This document shows, in pieces, positions 1,517 through 8,463 of a stretch of DNA of 41,672 nucleotides; the first letter of the stretch is position 1; each line of letters starts with the position of its first letter. The notes below the pieces were generated by a model, which was given only the letters and a program-made list of their open reading frames with translations, was not told where the DNA came from and did not search any database. A program made the translations under genes and the position numbers. Origin of the DNA: a virus; IMG/VR virus record IMGVR_UViG_3300029181_000008, positions 1 through 41,672 of that record, one strand, 5' to 3'.

Positions 1517-1657
1517 ATGGATGCAAAGAGAATGCTTTTGAAGGATGCGATTGAAACAGCAATCCGCACTGAACGGCAGCTAATTCATTGCCGCCTTGCG
1601 TTAGTAGTCTCAGCTCTTGCCAATGCTGCCTTGATTGCTTATATAGTAGTGAGGTAG
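1517..1657 (+). CDS. Small C-terminally membrane-anchored protein (possible lysis accessory)
   Basis: 46-aa ORF MDAKRMLLKDAIETAIRTERQLIHCRLALVVSALANAALIAYIVVR, below the ORF-track cutoff. It starts 3 nt after the endolysin stop and has a hydrophobic C-terminal tail. Confidence 0.4.
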   Translation: MDAKRMLLKDAIETAIRTERQLIHCRLALVVSALANAALIAYIVVR

Positions 1658-1662
1658 CGTAT

Positions 1663-1920
1663 ATGGATAGAGGGCTTGTTAAGGTATTTTGGGGATGCGG
1701 TGACAATGGTATAATCGAGTATGCCCTGATGAGGGCGCGACTGAATCGGAAGGAGAAAGAGGCAGTAACTTATCTTCTGGATGAGTGTATGTCTCAAGAG
1801 GAAGCAGCGGAAAAGATGTGCGTAAGTACGCGAAGATTTCAAGAGTACTGGTACGCGGCATCTGACAAGCTGCTGTCTCTTCCGTGGCTTGCGGCTTATG
1901 CGGAAGAACTGAAAAAATAG
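1663..1920 (+). CDS. Small sigma-70-region-4/LuxR-like HTH regulator
   Basis: Internal ATG of ORF 1588..1920. The segment LNRKEKEAVTYLLDECMSQEEAAEKMCVSTRRFQEYW has a region-4-like HTH pattern. Confidence 0.6.
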   Translation: MDRGLVKVFWGCGDNGIIEYALMRARLNRKEKEAVTYLLDECMSQEEAAEKMCVSTRRFQEYWYAASDKLLSLPWLAAYAEELKK

Positions 1921-1980: not shown

Positions 1981-2013
1981 AGAAGGGCAGAAAAGAAAAT
2001 GGAGGGACACACA

Positions 2014-2583
2014 ATGAGAAAATCTTTGTACGCATTAACCATGGCACTTGCGCTTGCAGTATCTACAGCCCCAGTAATGGCAGAAGAAACAAGCACAGAA
2101 GAAGGAGCTGAGATTGCAGCAGACGAGAACACAGTAGAGGGTATCGAAGCAATGATTCAGCAACTTGAAAAGCAGATTGCGGAATTGAAGCAGAAGTTAA
2201 AAGAGCTTCGAGGAGAGGATGCAATTCAGGAGGGAGATATCGTATATCAGGACGATATGGTAATCATTACCTACAATGGCATATCTGATGAGTATGGACG
2301 ATATGATATCATGCTTACTGCCGAGAATTTGACTGATAAAAAAATTCGTGTGCAGACATCTGATACATCAATCAATGGCTACATGACATACCAAATGTTT
2401 TCTGTTGGCTTAGAAGCCAATAAAAAATCGAAGGGAACGCTTACTATTGATGACAGTGTAGAGGTTGAAAATATCGAAGATTTGCAGAATGTAGAGACAA
2501 AAATTCAAGTATTGGATGATACTACATATGAAGAGCTTCTTCTTACTGACCCAATTACTATCAATTTCAACATTGAAAAATAA
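2014..2583 (+). CDS. Secreted protein (signal peptide, coiled coil, beta-rich domain); moron
   Basis: GGAGGG RBS lies 6 nt before ATG 2014. MRKSLYALTMALALAVSTAPVMA-EE is a signal-peptidase-I type leader with no lipobox Cys. Confidence 0.75.
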   Translation: MRKSLYALTMALALAVSTAPVMAEETSTEEGAEIAADENTVEGIEAMIQQLEKQIAELKQKLKELRGEDAIQEGDIVYQDDMVIITYNGISDEYGRYDIMLTAENLTDKKIRVQTSDTSINGYMTYQMFSVGLEANKKSKGTLTIDDSVEVENIEDLQNVETKIQVLDDTTYEELLLTDPITINFNIEK

Positions 2584-2592
2584 AAAAATGAG

Positions 2593-2624
2593 AGAGCTTG
2601 CCAGAAACGGCAGGCTCTTTTTTT
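2593..2624 (+). terminator. Rho-independent terminator
   Basis: 10-bp stem agagcttgcc/ggcaggctct, loop agaaac, followed by T7. Confidence 0.8.
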
Positions 2625-2651
2625 ATGCGTAAAATCATCGTGCCTGCATCG

Positions 2652-2680
2652 TGTCTTTTCTCCCCTGCATGTGTGATAAT
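2652..2680 (+). promoter_or_regulatory. Possible promoter of the cargo operon (weak -35, extended -10)
   Basis: TGTCTT, 17 nt, then TGtGATAAT (2672-2680). The leader to RBS GGAGGG (2689-2694) would be very short. Confidence 0.3.
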
Positions 2681-2702: not shown

Positions 2703-3086
2703 ATGTATAAAAGATATAATCCAAACCCAGTTGCAGCAAGAGTAGGAGATTGCACCGTCAGGGCATTATGCAAGGCTCTTGATCAGGACTGGGACAAGAC
2801 CTACTTACAACTTTGCGTGCAGGGCTTGCTGATGGCTGATATGCCGTCTGCAAATGCAGTGTGGGGCGCATACCTGCATGACGAAGGTTTTAGGCGAGGT
2901 ATAGTCTCTGAGGCTTGCCCTATCTGCTATAACGTTGCATCATTTGCGGCAGAACATCCACAAGGGGTGTATGTATTGGCACTGGGAAGCCATGTTGTAA
3001 CTGTGGTTGATGGTGATTATTATGATACATGGGACTCAGGGCAGGAAATCCCCCTCTACTTTTGGGAAAGGAGTGATGAGAAGTGA
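2703..3086 (+). CDS. Small Cys-His-Asp enzyme (papain/transglutaminase-like fold predicted); first gene of the cargo operon
   Basis: Internal ATG with a GGAGGG RBS. Ordered motifs are GDCTVRA (Cys), GSHVVTV (His) and YYDTWDSG (Asp). Confidence 0.65.
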   Translation: MYKRYNPNPVAARVGDCTVRALCKALDQDWDKTYLQLCVQGLLMADMPSANAVWGAYLHDEGFRRGIVSEACPICYNVASFAAEHPQGVYVLALGSHVVTVVDGDYYDTWDSGQEIPLYFWERSDEK

Positions 3087-3568
3087 GTTACCCCTACTAT
3101 GGCTATCAAAATTTTGGGCAACCGTATAGCCCACCCGTGCCAGATCAGCTAGCACAGATGAGAATGCAGCAGAGTCCACAAATGCAGGGCTATCAGAATT
3201 TTGGGCAACAGCAGCCTCAGCCCTCTGCGGACGACCGTATTTGGGTTCAAGGGCAGAATGCAGCAGAAGCCTATCTTGTAGCTGCTAATGGATTTGTGAG
3301 ACTGTGGGATAGTAGCCGACAAGTTTTCTACGAGAAACGAGCTGACAGCTCTGGACGACCTTACATGGAAACGTATGAGTATCAGCGCAAGGGTGCGGAA
3401 TCGCCCAACGTAGGCACGGAGACGCAGAAGCAAGCTGTTGACTACTCAAAAGAGATAAGCGGCTTAAAGCAGCGTTTAGCGGCTCTGGAAGCACACTTTA
3501 AGAACGGAGGTAGTGTAGATGCAATTTCAAAATCCAATGCAGATGATACAGCAATTCCAACAGTTTAA
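3083..3568 (+). CDS. Gln/Pro-rich N-terminus plus small beta domain protein
   Basis: GTG start overlaps the upstream stop (GTGA). GYQNFGQ is duplicated in a Q-rich first ~50 aa, followed by IWVQGQNAAEAYLVAANGFVRLWD. Confidence 0.65.
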   Translation: MSYPYYGYQNFGQPYSPPVPDQLAQMRMQQSPQMQGYQNFGQQQPQPSADDRIWVQGQNAAEAYLVAANGFVRLWDSSRQVFYEKRADSSGRPYMETYEYQRKGAESPNVGTETQKQAVDYSKEISGLKQRLAALEAHFKNGGSVDAISKSNADDTAIPTV

Positions 3569-3704
3569 AAAAGCATTTACTGGTGATCCCAAAGCAGAGG
3601 TTCAGAAGCTTCTTACCTCTGGGAAAATCAATCAGCAACAGCTCAATCAGTTGCAAGCAATGGCGCAACAGTTTCAAGGGTTGTTAAATAGCAATGGTAA
3701 GTAA
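3519..3704 (+). CDS. Small Gln-rich helical protein
   Basis: GGAGG RBS lies 7 nt before the ATG. 61 aa with QQFQQF, QQQLNQLQAMAQQFQ. Overlaps the previous gene by 50 nt out of frame. Confidence 0.6.
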   Translation: MQFQNPMQMIQQFQQFKKAFTGDPKAEVQKLLTSGKINQQQLNQLQAMAQQFQGLLNSNGK

Positions 3705-3757: not shown

Positions 3758-4612
3758 ATGAGTTTAACAAGTGAAAGTATGACTCCTGCCGATATCGCAG
3801 CCGTAACAGGTAATAACGGTAACGGAATGTGGGGTGATGGTGGTGCATGGTGGATCATCATTCTTTTCCTCTTCGTGTTCTGCGGTTGGGGAAACGGTAA
3901 CGGATGGGGAAACAACGGAGGTGCAGGCGCGGCTGATAACTACGTTTTAGCAAGCGATTTTGCAACCTTACAGCGACAGATCGACAGCTCTACAGCGTCA
4001 TTAGAGCGCAAATCCGATGCGATCAACAGTGGACTCTGTGATGGCTTTTACGCGATGAATACCACCGCTTTAAACGGCTTCTCAGGTGTCAACCAGAATC
4101 TTAGTAACGGCTTTGCACAGGCTGAATTGTCTCGTGCTAACGGACAGATGGGCTTAATGCAGCAGATGAACGCTAACAACATCACGGCTATGCAGAATGC
4201 CAACGCTTTGCAGTCTCAGCTTGCACAGTGCTGCTGCGATAACCGAGAGGCTATCTCTGGTGTGAACTACAACATGGCGATGAATACCAATGCCTTGCAG
4301 CACAGTGTAGAATCTGGATTCTGCCAGACGAACTACAACAACGCTTCCAATACGCGCGATATCATCGACAACCAGAACAGCAACGCAAGAGCGATCCTTG
4401 ATGCACTGAATGCACAGCAGATTGCGGCAAAAGATGCGAAGATTGCCGAGCAGAATCAGCAGATTTTTGGCTTGCAGCTTGCAGCATCTCAGCAGGCACA
4501 GAACAATTACTTAGTTCAGACACTTAAACCTGCACCAGTTCCGAGCTTTCCTGCTGGACAGCTCTACGGCTACATGGGTGGCTGCTGCAATCCGTGCAAT
4601 AGCTGTTCCTGA
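3758..4612 (+). CDS. Membrane-anchored Asn/Gln-rich, Cys-cluster protein
   Basis: AGGAG RBS. One TM helix (GAWWIIILFLFVFCGW) is flanked by a GNGNGWGNNGG tract. Has internal CCC (QCCCDN) and a C-terminal GGCCNPCNSCS. Confidence 0.7.
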   Translation: MSLTSESMTPADIAAVTGNNGNGMWGDGGAWWIIILFLFVFCGWGNGNGWGNNGGAGAADNYVLASDFATLQRQIDSSTASLERKSDAINSGLCDGFYAMNTTALNGFSGVNQNLSNGFAQAELSRANGQMGLMQQMNANNITAMQNANALQSQLAQCCCDNREAISGVNYNMAMNTNALQHSVESGFCQTNYNNASNTRDIIDNQNSNARAILDALNAQQIAAKDAKIAEQNQQIFGLQLAASQQAQNNYLVQTLKPAPVPSFPAGQLYGYMGGCCNPCNSCS

Positions 4613-4627
4613 TAGGGGGTGGCGAGT

Positions 4628-5038
4628 ATGGCAGAATATACGTTAACCACACCTACAGCCGTCCCTCTGGGCGGTGCAGTGCCATATACCAACACAATTA
4701 TCAAGGGTTGCTGTAACATCAAGCATAGAGCAGGTTCAGGGCAGGTGACTGTCAAGGGCGGCACTTGCTGCAACCCTGCAAAGTACCTCGTGTACTTTCA
4801 CGCCAACGTAACAGGAGTTGCAGGAGCAATTCAGCTTGCGCTGTTTTTGGATGGCGAGAGGCTTCCAGAAACCTTGATGGCTGTTGTTCCTGCCGCTGCG
4901 ACTGACGTTTGGTCAGTGAGTGCAGAAACTGAATTTTGCGTGGACTGCTGCTGTGGCACAGTCTCAGCAAGAGTAGTAGAGGGTGCAACGGTTACAGTTA
5001 ATACAGCGGAAATAATCGTGAAAAAGGAGGTGGCATAA
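4628..5038 (+). CDS. Cys-cluster beta-sandwich protein, BclA-C-terminal/C1q-like pattern
   Basis: ATG 4628 lies 8 nt after AGGGGG (the ORF track starts at GTG 4619). Pattern is KYLVYFHANVTG...IQLALFLDGERL with CC, CC and CCC clusters. Confidence 0.6.
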   Translation: MAEYTLTTPTAVPLGGAVPYTNTIIKGCCNIKHRAGSGQVTVKGGTCCNPAKYLVYFHANVTGVAGAIQLALFLDGERLPETLMAVVPAAATDVWSVSAETEFCVDCCCGTVSARVVEGATVTVNTAEIIVKKEVA

Positions 5039-5433
5039 TGGGAACAATGGAAGATTTAAAACGCATGATTTGCACAGAACTTGAAGAAATCGCCAAAAAG
5101 GGTGAAATGTCCGCAGGCGATCTTGATACAGTATACAAGCTCATCGTATCGAAGGAAAAGCTTCTGCGCATTGACGAGCTTGAAGAAAAGCTTGGCTATA
5201 GCGAAGACGGCAGAAAATGGAGATACAGCAGAGACGGAGAGCCAGATGGCGGCAGCAGCTATGGACGGCATTATGTGAGGGCACACTACAGCAGAGACGG
5301 TAGAGGACGCTACAGCATGGATGAGGGACGCACGATGCTTGCAGATCAGATCAGAGATATGATTGATAACAGTGATCTGAGCCAGAACCAGAAAGGCGCA
5401 CTCAGAAAGGCAATGGAAGCTTTGCAGGAGTGA
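5038..5433 (+). CDS. Helical protein with a central Arg/Gly/Tyr-rich YSRDG-repeat segment
   Basis: AAGGAGG RBS. Start overlaps the upstream stop (TAATG). Contains RYSRDG...HYSRDGRGRYSMDEG. Confidence 0.65.
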   Translation: MGTMEDLKRMICTELEEIAKKGEMSAGDLDTVYKLIVSKEKLLRIDELEEKLGYSEDGRKWRYSRDGEPDGGSSYGRHYVRAHYSRDGRGRYSMDEGRTMLADQIRDMIDNSDLSQNQKGALRKAMEALQE

Positions 5434-5454: not shown

Positions 5455-5778
5455 ATGCTTGATATGGACGAGATAAAAAGTGAGATTGCACGGCTTGAAA
5501 ATGGAAATATCACCTTTTCAACTGTGGAAAAGCTTGCTATGCTCTACATAGTGCAAGAGCGCAACTCCCCTATACCAGAACCAGAGCCAGTTGAGATACA
5601 GCAAATGCCAAAGTATGCGTATGCAGCCGCACCAACTGCCCCTAAATCTGATTTTTTAGAGGCGGTTGGAAAAGTACCGATAGAAAAAGCCTTAGATGTA
5701 CTGGATGAGCATATGGAAGCAATAAAGCTGCTATATCCTAAGGAGTACAAGGCTGTGATAAACAAAATATTGGCATAA
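5455..5778 (+). CDS. Hypothetical protein, last gene of the cargo operon
   Basis: AAGGGGG RBS. 107 aa with a Pro/Glu linker (PIPEPEPVEIQQ). Confidence 0.6.
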   Translation: MLDMDEIKSEIARLENGNITFSTVEKLAMLYIVQERNSPIPEPEPVEIQQMPKYAYAAAPTAPKSDFLEAVGKVPIEKALDVLDEHMEAIKLLYPKEYKAVINKILA

Positions 5779-5783
5779 AAAAG

Positions 5784-5811
5784 AAGAGGGTAGCAGTTGT
5801 GCTTCCCTCTT
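5784..5811. terminator. Bidirectional terminator between the convergent cargo operon and the minus-strand cassette
   Basis: Stem aagagggtagc/gcttccctctt (one mismatch). An A-run lies upstream, giving a U-run on the minus-strand RNA, and the + side is T-rich. Confidence 0.65.
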
Positions 5812-5830
5812 TCGACTTTTAAAATCTTAC

Positions 5831-6016
5831 CTACAATTCAACAACAATATTGGCTGAATCTTGAATCACTGCACGCTCCAATAGTGCAGCCACATAATCT
5901 GGACAACTGCGCTTGCCCTGCTCCCATGATTGCAAGGTGCGTGGTGGGATTCCATACCTTTTGCAAAATTCTTGCTGTGTGTCTCCTAACATCGCTCGCA
6001 TTTCTCGAATTTCCAT
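5831..6016 (-). CDS. XRE-family HTH protein (antitoxin-like short form)
   Basis: MEIREMRAMLGDTQQEFCKRYGIPPRTLQSWEQGKR is a classic HTH_XRE pattern. The start abuts the upstream stop. Confidence 0.8.
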   Translation of the reverse strand: MEIREMRAMLGDTQQEFCKRYGIPPRTLQSWEQGKRSCPDYVAALLERAVIQDSANIVVEL

Positions 6017-6775
6017 TTACTTTTTATCCTGCCTTTCCTTAATATCCTTTGCTTTGTATTCTGATACAATTTCTTTGATTTTCAATTCCCAACCTTGATT
6101 TTCTTCCAAAAACTTTCCGAAAATTGCATCTTCGGCAGCTTTTCTTGCAGCCTTAGCGTTTTCAATATCTTTGTAAGCTCCAAGGGAGTATTGCTTGCCC
6201 TTAAAAGTAATGTATGCACGATAGCCACCGTGTCTCCCATAAGATACACCATTGATACCAGTTGTAGAGTTAGACCAAATCTTGCCTTCTTGAACTGATT
6301 TCGCAGCTGCAAGAGAAGAACCAGAAACCAAGAACTCTTTTCGCATGTCTTGCAAGAAGTTAGCGTTTTTCTTGTGGCATGAAGAACACTGTTTCATCTT
6401 CGGCAAGTTAGTTAGATATGCTTCTGTTTCTTGCCCACAAACGGGGCAGATTGCTTTACACATATATACCTTGTAGCCATTCATTTCTCGTTGCCATACA
6501 TCTAGCACTTTAAAACCATTTATTGTGCTGCCAATCTTGCTTTTTGCTTTCTTAGCAGAGTTCTCAGATGTTTTCTTTGCAGCCTTCTTGGCTGATTCCT
6601 CTTTGAATAGGCAACCGCAAGATAATGTGAGTCCTCTGGTTAAATTCCACTTGTACACATCTTTAACAGTTCCACATGCGCATTTGCAAGTGTAGTAGTT
6701 GGGTTTGGAAGAAGGGGCTATTACTTCCCAACTTCCAAATCTATCACCTGCTTGAAGATTATGCTTACTGCTCAT
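6017..6775 (-). CDS. DNA-binding protein with two Cys4 zinc-ribbon modules and a C-terminal AP2 domain
   Basis: Two CxC...CGC / CxxC...CxxC repeats are followed by GINGVSYGRHGGYRAYITFKGKQYSLGAYKDIENAKAARKAAE (AP2/ERF-like). Confidence 0.75.
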   Translation of the reverse strand: MSSKHNLQAGDRFGSWEVIAPSSKPNYYTCKCACGTVKDVYKWNLTRGLTLSCGCLFKEESAKKAAKKTSENSAKKAKSKIGSTINGFKVLDVWQREMNGYKVYMCKAICPVCGQETEAYLTNLPKMKQCSSCHKKNANFLQDMRKEFLVSGSSLAAAKSVQEGKIWSNSTTGINGVSYGRHGGYRAYITFKGKQYSLGAYKDIENAKAARKAAEDAIFGKFLEENQGWELKIKEIVSEYKAKDIKERQDKK

Positions 6776-7128: not shown

Positions 7129-8463
7129 TTAAACAAAGTACACCTTGTCGACTGAGTGACGCTTGATCTCGATTCTCCTCACAACTCTGTGCCAGAAATC
7201 TCGCTTTCCCTGCCTTGATAGCTGCTCGTAAATTTCCTTCCAGTTATCTGGCATCTGGCTGACTGGTAGCGCAGGTGCTGCCAAACTCTCAAGCTCCGCA
7301 AGCTGTGCTTTCAGCTCTTTTGTCTTTTCAAGATACTCAGCACGGCTCATATCACCATCAAGGTATATATCTTTCAGCCGTTCCAATCTCCCCTTGATCT
7401 TCTCAATTTTTCCCTCGGTGCTTTTTGCTTTCGCTGCAAGCTTCTGAACGCTTGCGTTATAATCTACAATCAATTCTTCCAGATGATCTATCATGTAGCT
7501 TTCCAAATTGTGTTCCATGATGAATGCAGCGTTTTTGCATTCTCCTCTCCGCACGGTTCTCATACGGCATTGATAGTATAGCTTTTCCTTTGGTTTGCCG
7601 TAGCTTGTATAGCAAGTGCACTTTGATCCCATCCTTGCACCACAGCTAGCGCAGAAGATTAACCCTGTAAAAATATATACTCTGTCTGCTTTTGGCTGTC
7701 TGGGATAATGCTGCCTTGCTTGCTGTATAAGCTCATGTTGTGCAGGTGTGATATATCCTGGCACTGATACACCATAGTAAGTGCCGTAGTACGGCTCTTT
7801 ATCAAGCAAAAAATGAGCGGTTTTCCGAGACATTTTCAAGCCCTTTTCGGCAGCTGCATCCATGGCTTGCACTGGGCTGTATGTGTTAAGATAGGTATCA
7901 AAAAAAGCTTGCATAGCTTCTTTTGTCTGAGGATCGAAGTCAATCGTAGATGCTGATGTGCGGATATATCCGAGTGGCATCTTACCTACTATGATATATC
8001 CCTGCGATTTGCGATACTCGTTAACCGCTCTGATACGCTCTGAGGTGCGGTCTGACTCAGCTTGGGCGATACTCAACATAATGTTGACTTTAAACACACC
8101 TGCGGACGTTTCCGTCTCGTAGTCCTCCCAGATAGCTCTCCATGGTACTTTTGCGGCATCAAGCTGACTCTGTACCTCATAGTAGTCCGCAACGGAGCGA
8201 AACCATCTATCGAGCTTTGTAAAAAGGATGATATCAATTTTGTGATCTTTGCAATCCTGTATAAGTTGTAGCAGCGCAGGACGTGCTTTGTACTTCTTTC
8301 TCGCACTAATGCCTGCATCGTTGTAGATGCCTGCGACTTCCAGACCGTTCTCGCGGCAGTACTTTTGCAGCGCATCAATCTGGCTATCTACTGATAAGCC
8401 GTGATCTCTTTGTTCTGCGGTTGATACGCGGACATATATAGCCGCCCTTTTCTTTCCTTCCAT
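7129..8463 (-). CDS. int: Large serine recombinase (phage integrase)
   Basis: N-terminal resolvase motif AAIYVRVSTAEQ, recombinase domain, Cys-rich zinc-ribbon segment (CASCGARMG...YYQC) and C-terminal coiled coil. 444 aa. Confidence 0.95.
   Translation of the reverse strand: MEGKKRAAIYVRVSTAEQRDHGLSVDSQIDALQKYCRENGLEVAGIYNDAGISARKKYKARPALLQLIQDCKDHKIDIILFTKLDRWFRSVADYYEVQSQLDAAKVPWRAIWEDYETETSAGVFKVNIMLSIAQAESDRTSERIRAVNEYRKSQGYIIVGKMPLGYIRTSASTIDFDPQTKEAMQAFFDTYLNTYSPVQAMDAAAEKGLKMSRKTAHFLLDKEPYYGTYYGVSVPGYITPAQHELIQQARQHYPRQPKADRVYIFTGLIFCASCGARMGSKCTCYTSYGKPKEKLYYQCRMRTVRRGECKNAAFIMEHNLESYMIDHLEELIVDYNASVQKLAAKAKSTEGKIEKIKGRLERLKDIYLDGDMSRAEYLEKTKELKAQLAELESLAAPALPVSQMPDNWKEIYEQLSRQGKRDFWHRVVRRIEIKRHSVDKVYFV

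Follow-up and report, generated by a model that had tools for sequence, protein, structure and literature searches.

A small papain-fold protein heads a conserved accessory gene cassette of gut-Clostridia phages and is a candidate processing peptidase

What does a small Cys-His-Asp enzyme do in a phage genome, when the two genes directly behind it encode proteins whose most striking feature is glutamine? This question is raised by positions 2,703 to 3,704 of the IMG/VR virus record IMGVR_UViG_3300029181_000008, a stretch of 41,672 nucleotides (nt) analysed here at its full length and called the window, which makes up all or nearly all of a siphophage genome of the gut-Clostridia kind. A first reading made from the letters of the DNA only (the sequence-only reading) had taken the three genes for a pairing of enzyme and substrate, the enzyme being either a transglutaminase cross-linking its Gln-rich neighbours, as Tgl does with GerQ in Bacillus spores, or a peptidase cleaving them. 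The answer that we favour, and hold tentatively, is that the enzyme, here called CHD, acts as the dedicated processing peptidase, small and papain-like in fold, of an accessory cassette that is uncharacterised, mobile and late-expressed and to which both Gln-rich genes belong. The three open reading frames (ORFs) in question are real and lie where they had been placed; they and the elements within them are the following (aa, amino acids):

2703-3086, plus strand: CHD, ATG start, 127 aa, predicted papain fold with Cys17, His97 and Asp108; the gene that opens the cassette; phrog_3754
3083-3568, plus strand: YQP, GTG start, 161 aa; phrog_21718
3101-3208, plus strand: span with two copies (3101-3121 and 3188-3208) of a 21-nt direct repeat coding for GYQNFGQ, identical in 20 of 21 bases
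3506-3510, plus strand: GGAGG ribosome-binding site of the small gene, within the YQP coding sequence, 8 nt before the ATG
3519-3704, plus strand: small Q-rich protein, ATG start, 61 aa; phrog_22984

The motifs ascribed to these products are likewise present: GDC at residues 15-17, SHVV at 96-99 and DTWDS at 108-112 of the 127-aa protein, GYQNFGQ at residues 7-13 and again at 36-42 of the 161-aa protein, and both QQFQQFKK and QQQLNQLQAMAQQFQ in the 61-aa protein. The duplication of GYQNFGQ is allele-specific, the alternative allele having one GFQGFGQ. The glutamine richness is well above chance; against a window background of 4.4% on average (standard deviation 3.5; 62 non-overlapping ORFs), Gln makes up 26% of the 61-aa protein and 12.4% of the 161-aa protein, in the latter 26% of the first 50 residues, and these two rank first and second of the 62 ORFs, followed by the next gene, 3758-4612, with 8.8%. 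It is also conserved in homologues, with family means of 24.5% for the small protein and 11.2% for YQP. The 50-nt out-of-frame overlap of YQP and the small gene (3519-3568) and the GGAGG inside the upstream gene, which had been read as a sign of fixed-ratio co-expression, both exist, but the length of the overlap is not conserved among homologues, where 4, 8 or 17 nt are usual (with starts set by automatic choice of the first ATG). Tight coupling is conserved between CHD and YQP: the stop of the former and the start of the latter overlap by 4 nt in the window (GTGA), and the same 4-nt overlap is found in 40 of 80 loci.

That the 127-aa product is an enzyme of the papain fold, as its motifs had suggested, is also indicated by structure prediction. 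An AlphaFold model built from an alignment of 61 sequences (mean predicted local distance difference test, pLDDT, 93.2; predicted template-modelling score, pTM, 0.88), read at the level of topology, puts Cys17 at the first residue of a helix (17-26), which is followed by strands at 64-123, with His97 directly before strand 98-102 and Asp108 at the end of strand 105-108; in the model, this is the canonical papain-like layout, with a helix starting at the Cys and successive strands carrying His and Asp. All three residues are invariant in the 61-sequence alignment, and among 149 family representatives, counted where an aligned residue exists, Cys is kept in 128 of 133, His in 104 of 106 and Asp in 100 of 101. 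Asn8, Asp16, Arg20 and Trp30, which flank the Cys in sequence, are near-invariant too, and the triad is intact in more distant homologues (about 40% identity) of the Bacillus Tsamsa-like phages, of Geobacillus phage GBK2 and of Butyrivibrio phage Ceridwen. The family comprises 1,311 clusters at 90% identity and 2,928 representatives at 50% identity. Such conservation of the triad (about 96-99% of the family, across deep divergence) and of the four further residues speaks against the notion that CHD is inactive or merely structural, that the Gln-rich regions are linkers or scaffold-like and that the adjacency of the genes has no enzymatic meaning. The notion could appeal to scaffold-like phage proteins being commonly helical and Gln-rich, to the cassette adjoining a scaffold gene in half of the judged loci, and to two tandem CHD-CHD proteins, P0330 (299 aa) and P0350 (354 aa), whose second copy lacks the Cys and the His and has the look of a pseudo-enzyme; we nevertheless regard it as very improbable.

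Which of the papain-fold enzymes does CHD resemble? The closest solved fold is that of a deubiquitinase, Josephin-2 (PDB 6pgv_A; probability 0.94, TM score 0.49, E = 0.017, root-mean-square deviation (rmsd) 5.9 Å), with staphopain further down the list. Josephin-2 is, like CHD, a small single-domain papain fold with the Cys near the N-terminus at the start of a helix and with the His and an acidic or amide residue on a C-terminal hairpin. Unlike the Josephins, CHD has its His and Asp 11 residues apart, this spacing being about 15 residues in Josephins; the fit is poor, there is neither a Pfam match to Josephin (PF02099) nor a sequence match to the Josephins in the PDB, and the cassette holds no ubiquitin-like protein. 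The C39 peptidases share with CHD a size of about 130 aa, a 'DC' nucleophile motif and matching linear positions of the active site, which in the C39 domain ComA PEP is formed by Cys17, His96 and Asp112, and their double-glycine leader recalls the NPLFNALGGG with which most small-protein homologues begin. They differ in that none of the 61 CHD members matches PF03412 at E <= 10, no C39 structure is among the top 50 PDB fold matches of CHD, and no ABC transporter is encoded in or near the cassette. In BFVD, the matches to CHD include a phage protein annotated 'Peptidase C39 domain' (TM score 0.57), a giant-virus Josephin protein and many small uncharacterised CHD-like proteins from phages of Pseudomonas, Sphingomonas, Acidovorax, Cellulophaga and Enterococcus.

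Searching the PDB by sequence and by profile with CHD, YQP and the Cys-rich cassette protein Cys139 returned no relatives, Pfam and NCBIfam scans of all cassette proteins gave nothing above noise, and a PADLOC 2.0 scan of them yielded one match only, at chance level (E = 0.022). Weak, recurrent matches to TcpS and 'Phage_YunG-like' were dropped, lying far below the cut-offs. Beside the triad, a CPxC motif (Cys72-Pro-x-Cys75, window 2916-2927) is near-invariant in the Clostridia-phage clade and is replaced by a Lys-rich loop in the homologues of Bacillus and Geobacillus phages; it sits in the least confident region of the model (pLDDT about 80) and could be a redox or metal site.

The tie between the enzyme and the genes that follow it is firm, and it extends further than had been thought. 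CHD is genetically locked to both Gln-rich genes (80/80 loci), as the sequence-only reading implied, but the unit consists of six or seven genes and not of three: CHD, YQP, the small Q-rich protein, TM284, Cys139, p131 and usually p107. The order from CHD to p131 is found in 80 of 80 viral loci recovered by CHD, in 18 of 18 further cassette loci and in about 56 of 80 loci of a second sample; it recurs in Ceridwen, in Dulem virus 33, in prophages within larger contigs and in ten species-representative genomes, mostly metagenome-assembled genomes (MAGs). Across loci, the TM284-type protein measures 250-285 aa, the Cys-rich one about 140 aa, the p131-type about 130 aa and the last about 110 aa. 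Since the pairwise-distance matrices of the six core genes correlate with r = 0.75-0.96 over 136 distinct loci carrying all six, the cassette diverges as a block. A co-evolution specific to CHD and YQP was considered and discarded, the signal being indistinguishable from that of the whole cassette and the border between the two genes being a recombination breakpoint.

There are two places in the genome where this block is at home. In one, that of the window and its relatives, it lies between the lysis genes and an integrase of varying type (in the window, between lysin and integrase), while in the other home it stands behind a MuF-type minor capsid gene (PF06152) and ahead of the genes for the scaffold (PF06810) and the major capsid protein, as in Dulem virus 35, in Bajarodcaudo virus 2 and in about 55 of the 80 viral loci of the second sample; in locus L118, CHD overlaps the end of the minor capsid gene. 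The judged type-A loci, that is, those with the form of YQP that occurs in the window, are head-located in 51 of 104 cases and not so in 53, a split which stems from two biased samples and does not reflect natural frequencies. Examples of the head-located form are L118:5211-9998, L100:5974-12165 and L111:4574-11377; in loci of this type, a 101-149-aa protein with a transmembrane segment and a coiled coil, together with a gene for a helix-turn-helix (HTH) protein resembling sigma region 4, is inserted between CHD and YQP. Ceridwen has been observed in the lytic cycle only, and its host is described as non-sporulating. Because of the position within head operons and of the lytic-only observation of Ceridwen, a late role in the lytic cycle is favoured over lysogenic conversion or sporulation, and the same two facts weakened the candidate reading of the cassette as a lysogenic-conversion moron or a prophage-defence system. 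Three contigs with the cassette (L090, L091 and L092, 34.7-48.8 kb) were assigned to MAGs that bear the labels Methanarcanum and Paludibacteraceae, which is probably mis-binning of Clostridia phage contigs and not evidence of host.

What chemistry the enzyme may perform is suggested by a divergent, type-B form of the cassette, the YQP of which belongs to the same phrog_21718 but is divergent, and the small protein of which is rich in Met and Asn. CHD accompanies the type-A YQP in 104 of 104 judged loci and the type-B YQP in 0 of 15, while in 12 of these 15 loci the p131-like gene is followed by one for a 113-128-aa protein whose HE(L/V/I)xH motif is invariant, a gene never present in type-A loci. 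Zn-protease and metalloprotease models match the HExxH protein weakly. Should the two genes stand in for each other functionally, hydrolysis would be what they have in common, because an enzyme of the HExxH type cannot transamidate, and under this condition the alternation would be the main argument for a peptidase over a transglutaminase. The HExxH family as a whole (about 110-130 aa; phrog_1233, unknown function; 21 sequences in L104-L187, for example L111:8947-9288 and L104:7003-7389) has a conserved downstream acidic EQEE/EEI motif and occurs only in cassettes without CHD. Type-B loci with neither peptidase (L102:7140-8138, L106:6203-6982) encode a 259-332-aa protein with a low-complexity N-terminus rich in Asn, Ser, Gly and Met and with a conserved FLGL.GFK..(H/A)E segment.

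The other half of the original proposal, in which CHD would be a transglutaminase cross-linking YQP and the small protein through Gln-Lys isopeptides into an insoluble assembly, has a certain attraction: a papain-like fold with Cys, His and Asp as its triad is used by transglutaminases too, CHD is directly followed by the window's three most Gln-rich ORFs, the richness of which is conserved, the glutamines of YQP lie in a disordered, accessible segment, and the other cassette proteins are Cys-rich or of low complexity, like spore-coat proteins. A small Cys enzyme next to a protein with a Gln-rich N-terminus and a small globular domain is indeed what Tgl and GerQ and the present pair have in common. 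CHD matches neither the transglutaminase core (PF01841) nor Tgl in Pfam or NCBIfam, and no transglutaminase is found among its top 50 PDB fold matches; the GerQ models (Pfam Spore_GerQ and the TIGRFAM equivalent in NCBIfam) match neither the 161-aa nor the 61-aa protein at E <= 0.1. The active site of B. subtilis Tgl consists of Cys and Glu and not of Cys, His and Asp, and GerQ is cross-linked via N-terminal lysines, thus as the Lys donor, and not via its glutamines. As to lysines, the 80% consensus of the small protein has no conserved one, and the sole near-invariant Lys of YQP lies within the folded core region. The small proteins of type B are rich in Met and Asn instead of Gln, the gene that takes the place of CHD in these sister cassettes is metalloprotease-like, and the CHD homologues of Bacillus and Geobacillus phages have no Gln-rich neighbours. 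Finally, the cassette resides in a phage observed in the lytic cycle only, and within head-assembly operons. We therefore regard cross-linking by CHD as improbable, and the Tgl/GerQ analogy finds no support in any of the tests made here; a spore-coat reading, with neither homology nor a sporulation context, was set aside. What stands of the enzyme-substrate pairing is that the enzyme is tied to the genes that follow, and the peptidase-substrate alternative was the better half of the proposal.

If CHD is a peptidase with a substrate inside the cassette, YQP would be the first protein to consider. Its residues 1-48 are disordered and rich in Gln, Pro and Tyr, a PDQLAQ(L/M)R motif being the only conserved piece there; the core, residues 50-100, is a small alpha/beta unit modelled with pLDDT above 90, which holds nearly all invariant positions (DERIWVQG...FVRLWD...FYEKRAD..GRP), and after it come a helix (121-140) and an acidic SxSNADDTA tail. 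A fold search with YQP gave nothing significant (best E 0.4), and its core has no sequence relative in the PDB. Identical copies of the 161-aa protein are on record on 41 contigs, the longest of 43.5 kb. The small protein has the 80% family consensus MxQQFxQFxxxFxGDPxxEVxxLxxSGxxxQQQLNQxQxxAxQF and in most homologues the N-terminal NPLFNALGGG; the window allele lacks this segment, and its GGG is absent from Ceridwen as well, so that a double-glycine cleavage of this protein, considered as a candidate, fails for the window.

The link between CHD as enzyme and YQP as substrate is favoured by their strict co-occurrence in the Clostridia clade, by translational coupling and by two rare full-length, in-frame CHD-YQP fusions (P0318 and P0369). 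Other observations weigh against a peptidase dedicated to the cassette. CHD matches no peptidase HMM (hidden Markov model) in Pfam or NCBIfam, be it C39, Josephin or any other, and the Josephin fold match is marginal by its E value and rmsd. No conserved cleavage motif was found in YQP, and the GGG segment is missing from the small protein of the very window under study and of Ceridwen. The fusions are singletons, on 1-2 contigs. The co-divergence of CHD and YQP (r = 0.95) is no tighter than that of CHD and p131 (r = 0.96), and CHD and YQP alleles recombine freely at their border, as in L005, with 98% identity in CHD and 65% in YQP, and in L007, where it is the reverse. YQP exists without CHD in the type-B cassettes, which argues against an exclusive link of the two; the HExxH gene occupies a different place in the cassette than CHD does; and the mutual exclusion of the two genes may rest on few evolutionary events only. 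Intact-triad homologues of CHD in the Bacillus Tsamsa-like and Geobacillus GBK2 phages stand alone among unrelated small genes, and three type-B cassettes have neither peptidase, for which reasons a substrate inside the cassette is not obligatory.

These stand-alone homologues may also be taken to mean, and this is the main rival to the processing peptidase, that CHD is an effector directed at the host or at the phage, such as a papain-fold hydrolase, deamidase, isopeptidase or acyl-transferase, with its target outside the cassette and with YQP and the small protein as co-regulated partners or adaptors. The structurally similar small proteins in phages of Pseudomonas, Sphingomonas, Acidovorax, Cellulophaga and Enterococcus would fit such a role, as would a deubiquitinase being the closest solved fold and the interchangeability of CHD and YQP alleles. 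Moreover, in the head-located cassettes the MuF-type minor capsid gene runs directly into CHD, with an overlap, and this is a position known for phage-delivered toxin domains (PMC5576092). We consider an effector rather unlikely all the same, as CHD in the Clostridia clade always comes with the type-A YQP (104/104), to which it is translationally coupled, as it diverges in step with all cassette genes, as the HExxH alternative turns up precisely in the cassettes lacking CHD, and as no anti-defence or toxin family was matched.

Some forms of CHD beyond the canonical one should be mentioned. The long CHD proteins carry no Pfam domains. Truncated chimeras of CHD (with Cys139, p131 or p107; P0362) were rejected as a clue to function, being probably deletions or assembly artefacts. 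P0350 begins with a hydrophobic N-terminal signal or anchor, which suggests that some family members are located outside the cytoplasm.

Returning to the processing peptidase, the mechanism that we propose would run as follows. The seven genes would form a self-contained accessory operon, with a promoter-like element (about 2672) at one end and a terminator (about 5820) at the other, and would move as a block among gut-Clostridia siphophages with SPP1-type heads, on the late-gene strand. CHD would be a small cytoplasmic cysteine hydrolase, most like the Josephin or C39 enzymes, produced in fixed proportion with YQP via translational coupling, and it would perform limited proteolysis on at least one of the low-complexity proteins of the cassette, YQP being the prime candidate. 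The matured proteins might then be capsid-associated or injected cargo or else a membrane-anchored late structure, these being the leading guesses. For the cassette as a whole, it is conceivable, though doubtful, that it represents a mobile, undescribed module in which a prion-like Q/P/Y-rich protein, a Gln-rich helical one, a membrane-anchored one with a CCC motif and Cys-rich beta proteins are brought together in one assembly, matured by CHD or by the HExxH peptidase, with capsid cargo delivered along with the DNA or a late membrane-anchored structure as its product. For the head-located half of the cassettes, an analogy, and no more than that, can be drawn to T4 gp21 with gp22, gp67, gp68 and the IP proteins: there, too, a protease gene and small helical or disordered proteins lie between the portal or minor head and the scaffold or capsid genes. 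The serine prohead proteases (S78, U35 or T4 gp21 type) are no relatives of CHD, and the cassette differs from a prohead-protease cluster in being found equally often far from the head genes, in having its own terminators and regulator and in including a membrane protein.

The remaining parts of the cassette, its limits and the neighbouring genes of the window are listed here:

131-319: r1t-type holin
534-1514: endolysin
1588-1920, plus strand: small sigma-70 region-4-like HTH protein, 110 aa from a TTG start, the start being uncertain
2590-2628, plus strand: intrinsic terminator closing the upstream unit, 13-bp stem and a run of seven U; -20.8 kcal/mol, z -4.8, 0 of 200 shuffles as stable
2672-2680, plus strand: TGTGATAAT, a putative promoter element of extended -10 type, 22 nt ahead of the CHD ATG, read from the sequence
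3758-4612, plus strand: TM284, 284 aa; phrog_16490; the most widespread member of the cassette
4619-5038, plus strand: Cys139, Cys-rich, with invariant HRxGSG and CC motifs; phrog_20016
5038-5433, plus strand: p131, 131 aa, helical ends flanking a middle rich in Arg, Asp, Gly, Tyr and Ser; phrog_28802
5455-5778, plus strand: p107, 107 aa, ends the gene order of the cassette; missing from a minority of loci
5783-5822, plus strand: terminator-like hairpin with a U-rich tract closing the cassette; -17.5 kcal/mol, z -3.8, 0 of 200 shuffles as stable
7129-8463, strand opposite to the cassette: serine recombinase

TM284 is composed of a hydrophobic segment (WWIIILFLFVFCGW), a linker rich in Gly, Asn and Trp, a probably helical N/Q-rich region, an invariant CCC motif and a Cys-rich C-terminus; it counts at least 8,000 clusters at 90% identity, and all named entries among its best 120 matches are called 'hypothetical'. 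Cys139 is probably all-beta; its start is likelier the ATG at 4628, giving 136 aa, because homologues begin with MAEYT and the listed GTG has a poor ribosome-binding site. A BclA/C1q-like fold, considered for Cys139 from a sequence pattern, was not adopted, there being no PDB or Pfam match. The first five cassette proteins each fall into one PHROG family (3754, 21718, 22984, 16490 and 20016; E = 1e-19 to 1e-33), all five labelled 'unknown function'.

As to regulation, TGTGATAAT may act as the promoter of the cassette, and a similar TG(C/A)GATAAT element after a terminator is seen in the L067-L082 group. In L016-L059, 2-4 tandem copies of an 11-12-nt motif (AACTGAGGCACA, AAGTGATGCACA, AATTGATACACA), about 40-90 nt 5' of the CHD start, resemble operator or promoter repeats; the window has none of them. 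Homologues of the sigma-region-4-like HTH protein, which itself gives weak matches to Sigma70_r4_2 and to phrog_1190 'RNA polymerase sigma factor', are encoded just upstream of CHD in several loci and between CHD and YQP in the head-located cassettes, and this protein accompanies the cassette, probably as a regulator. A conserved ORF of 45-56 aa (...RLIAAGM...AMWY..QGDD..LE.YV...), which ends at or overlaps the CHD start in L002:5874-6023, L085:7470-7640, L024, L038, L062, L070, L077 and L084, may be an eighth cassette gene, absent from the window.

The head genes of the phage are of the SPP1 type, with terminase subunits, an SPP1-type portal, a Mu F-like minor head protein, a PF06810 scaffold and a Gp13-like major capsid protein. 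The 194-aa protein encoded at window positions 1999-2583, in the gap from the HTH gene to the cassette, has a coiled coil and an N-terminus like a signal peptide; it is restricted to the closest relatives (5 loci) and hence lies outside the conserved cassette. On the 3' side, the minus strand encodes, within 5831-6775, an HTH protein of XRE type (61 aa; PF01381) and a protein of 252 aa with matches to PHROG families of HNH endonucleases, followed by the serine recombinase. Scans of the window for tRNA genes and Rfam families gave no matches.

Neither the linkage of PHROG 3754, 21718, 22984, 16490 and 20016, nor the two homes, nor the alternation of a Cys-type and a Zn-type enzyme is annotated in any database record or publication that we examined. 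The cassette is among the commonest unannotated gene blocks of gut-Clostridia phages. Recognised as one co-diverging unit, its seven 'hypothetical proteins' become a defined experimental target, with two preferred homes, one of them inside the head-assembly operon, and with two seemingly interchangeable types of peptidase. Experiments are possible, because the carrier Ceridwen is a cultured phage. Should CHD prove to be a maturation peptidase, it would found a new family of small phage cysteine peptidases, the structural relatives of which reach into phages of Gram-negative hosts. The role of the cassette as a whole is, to our mind, a more interesting question than the enzyme itself.

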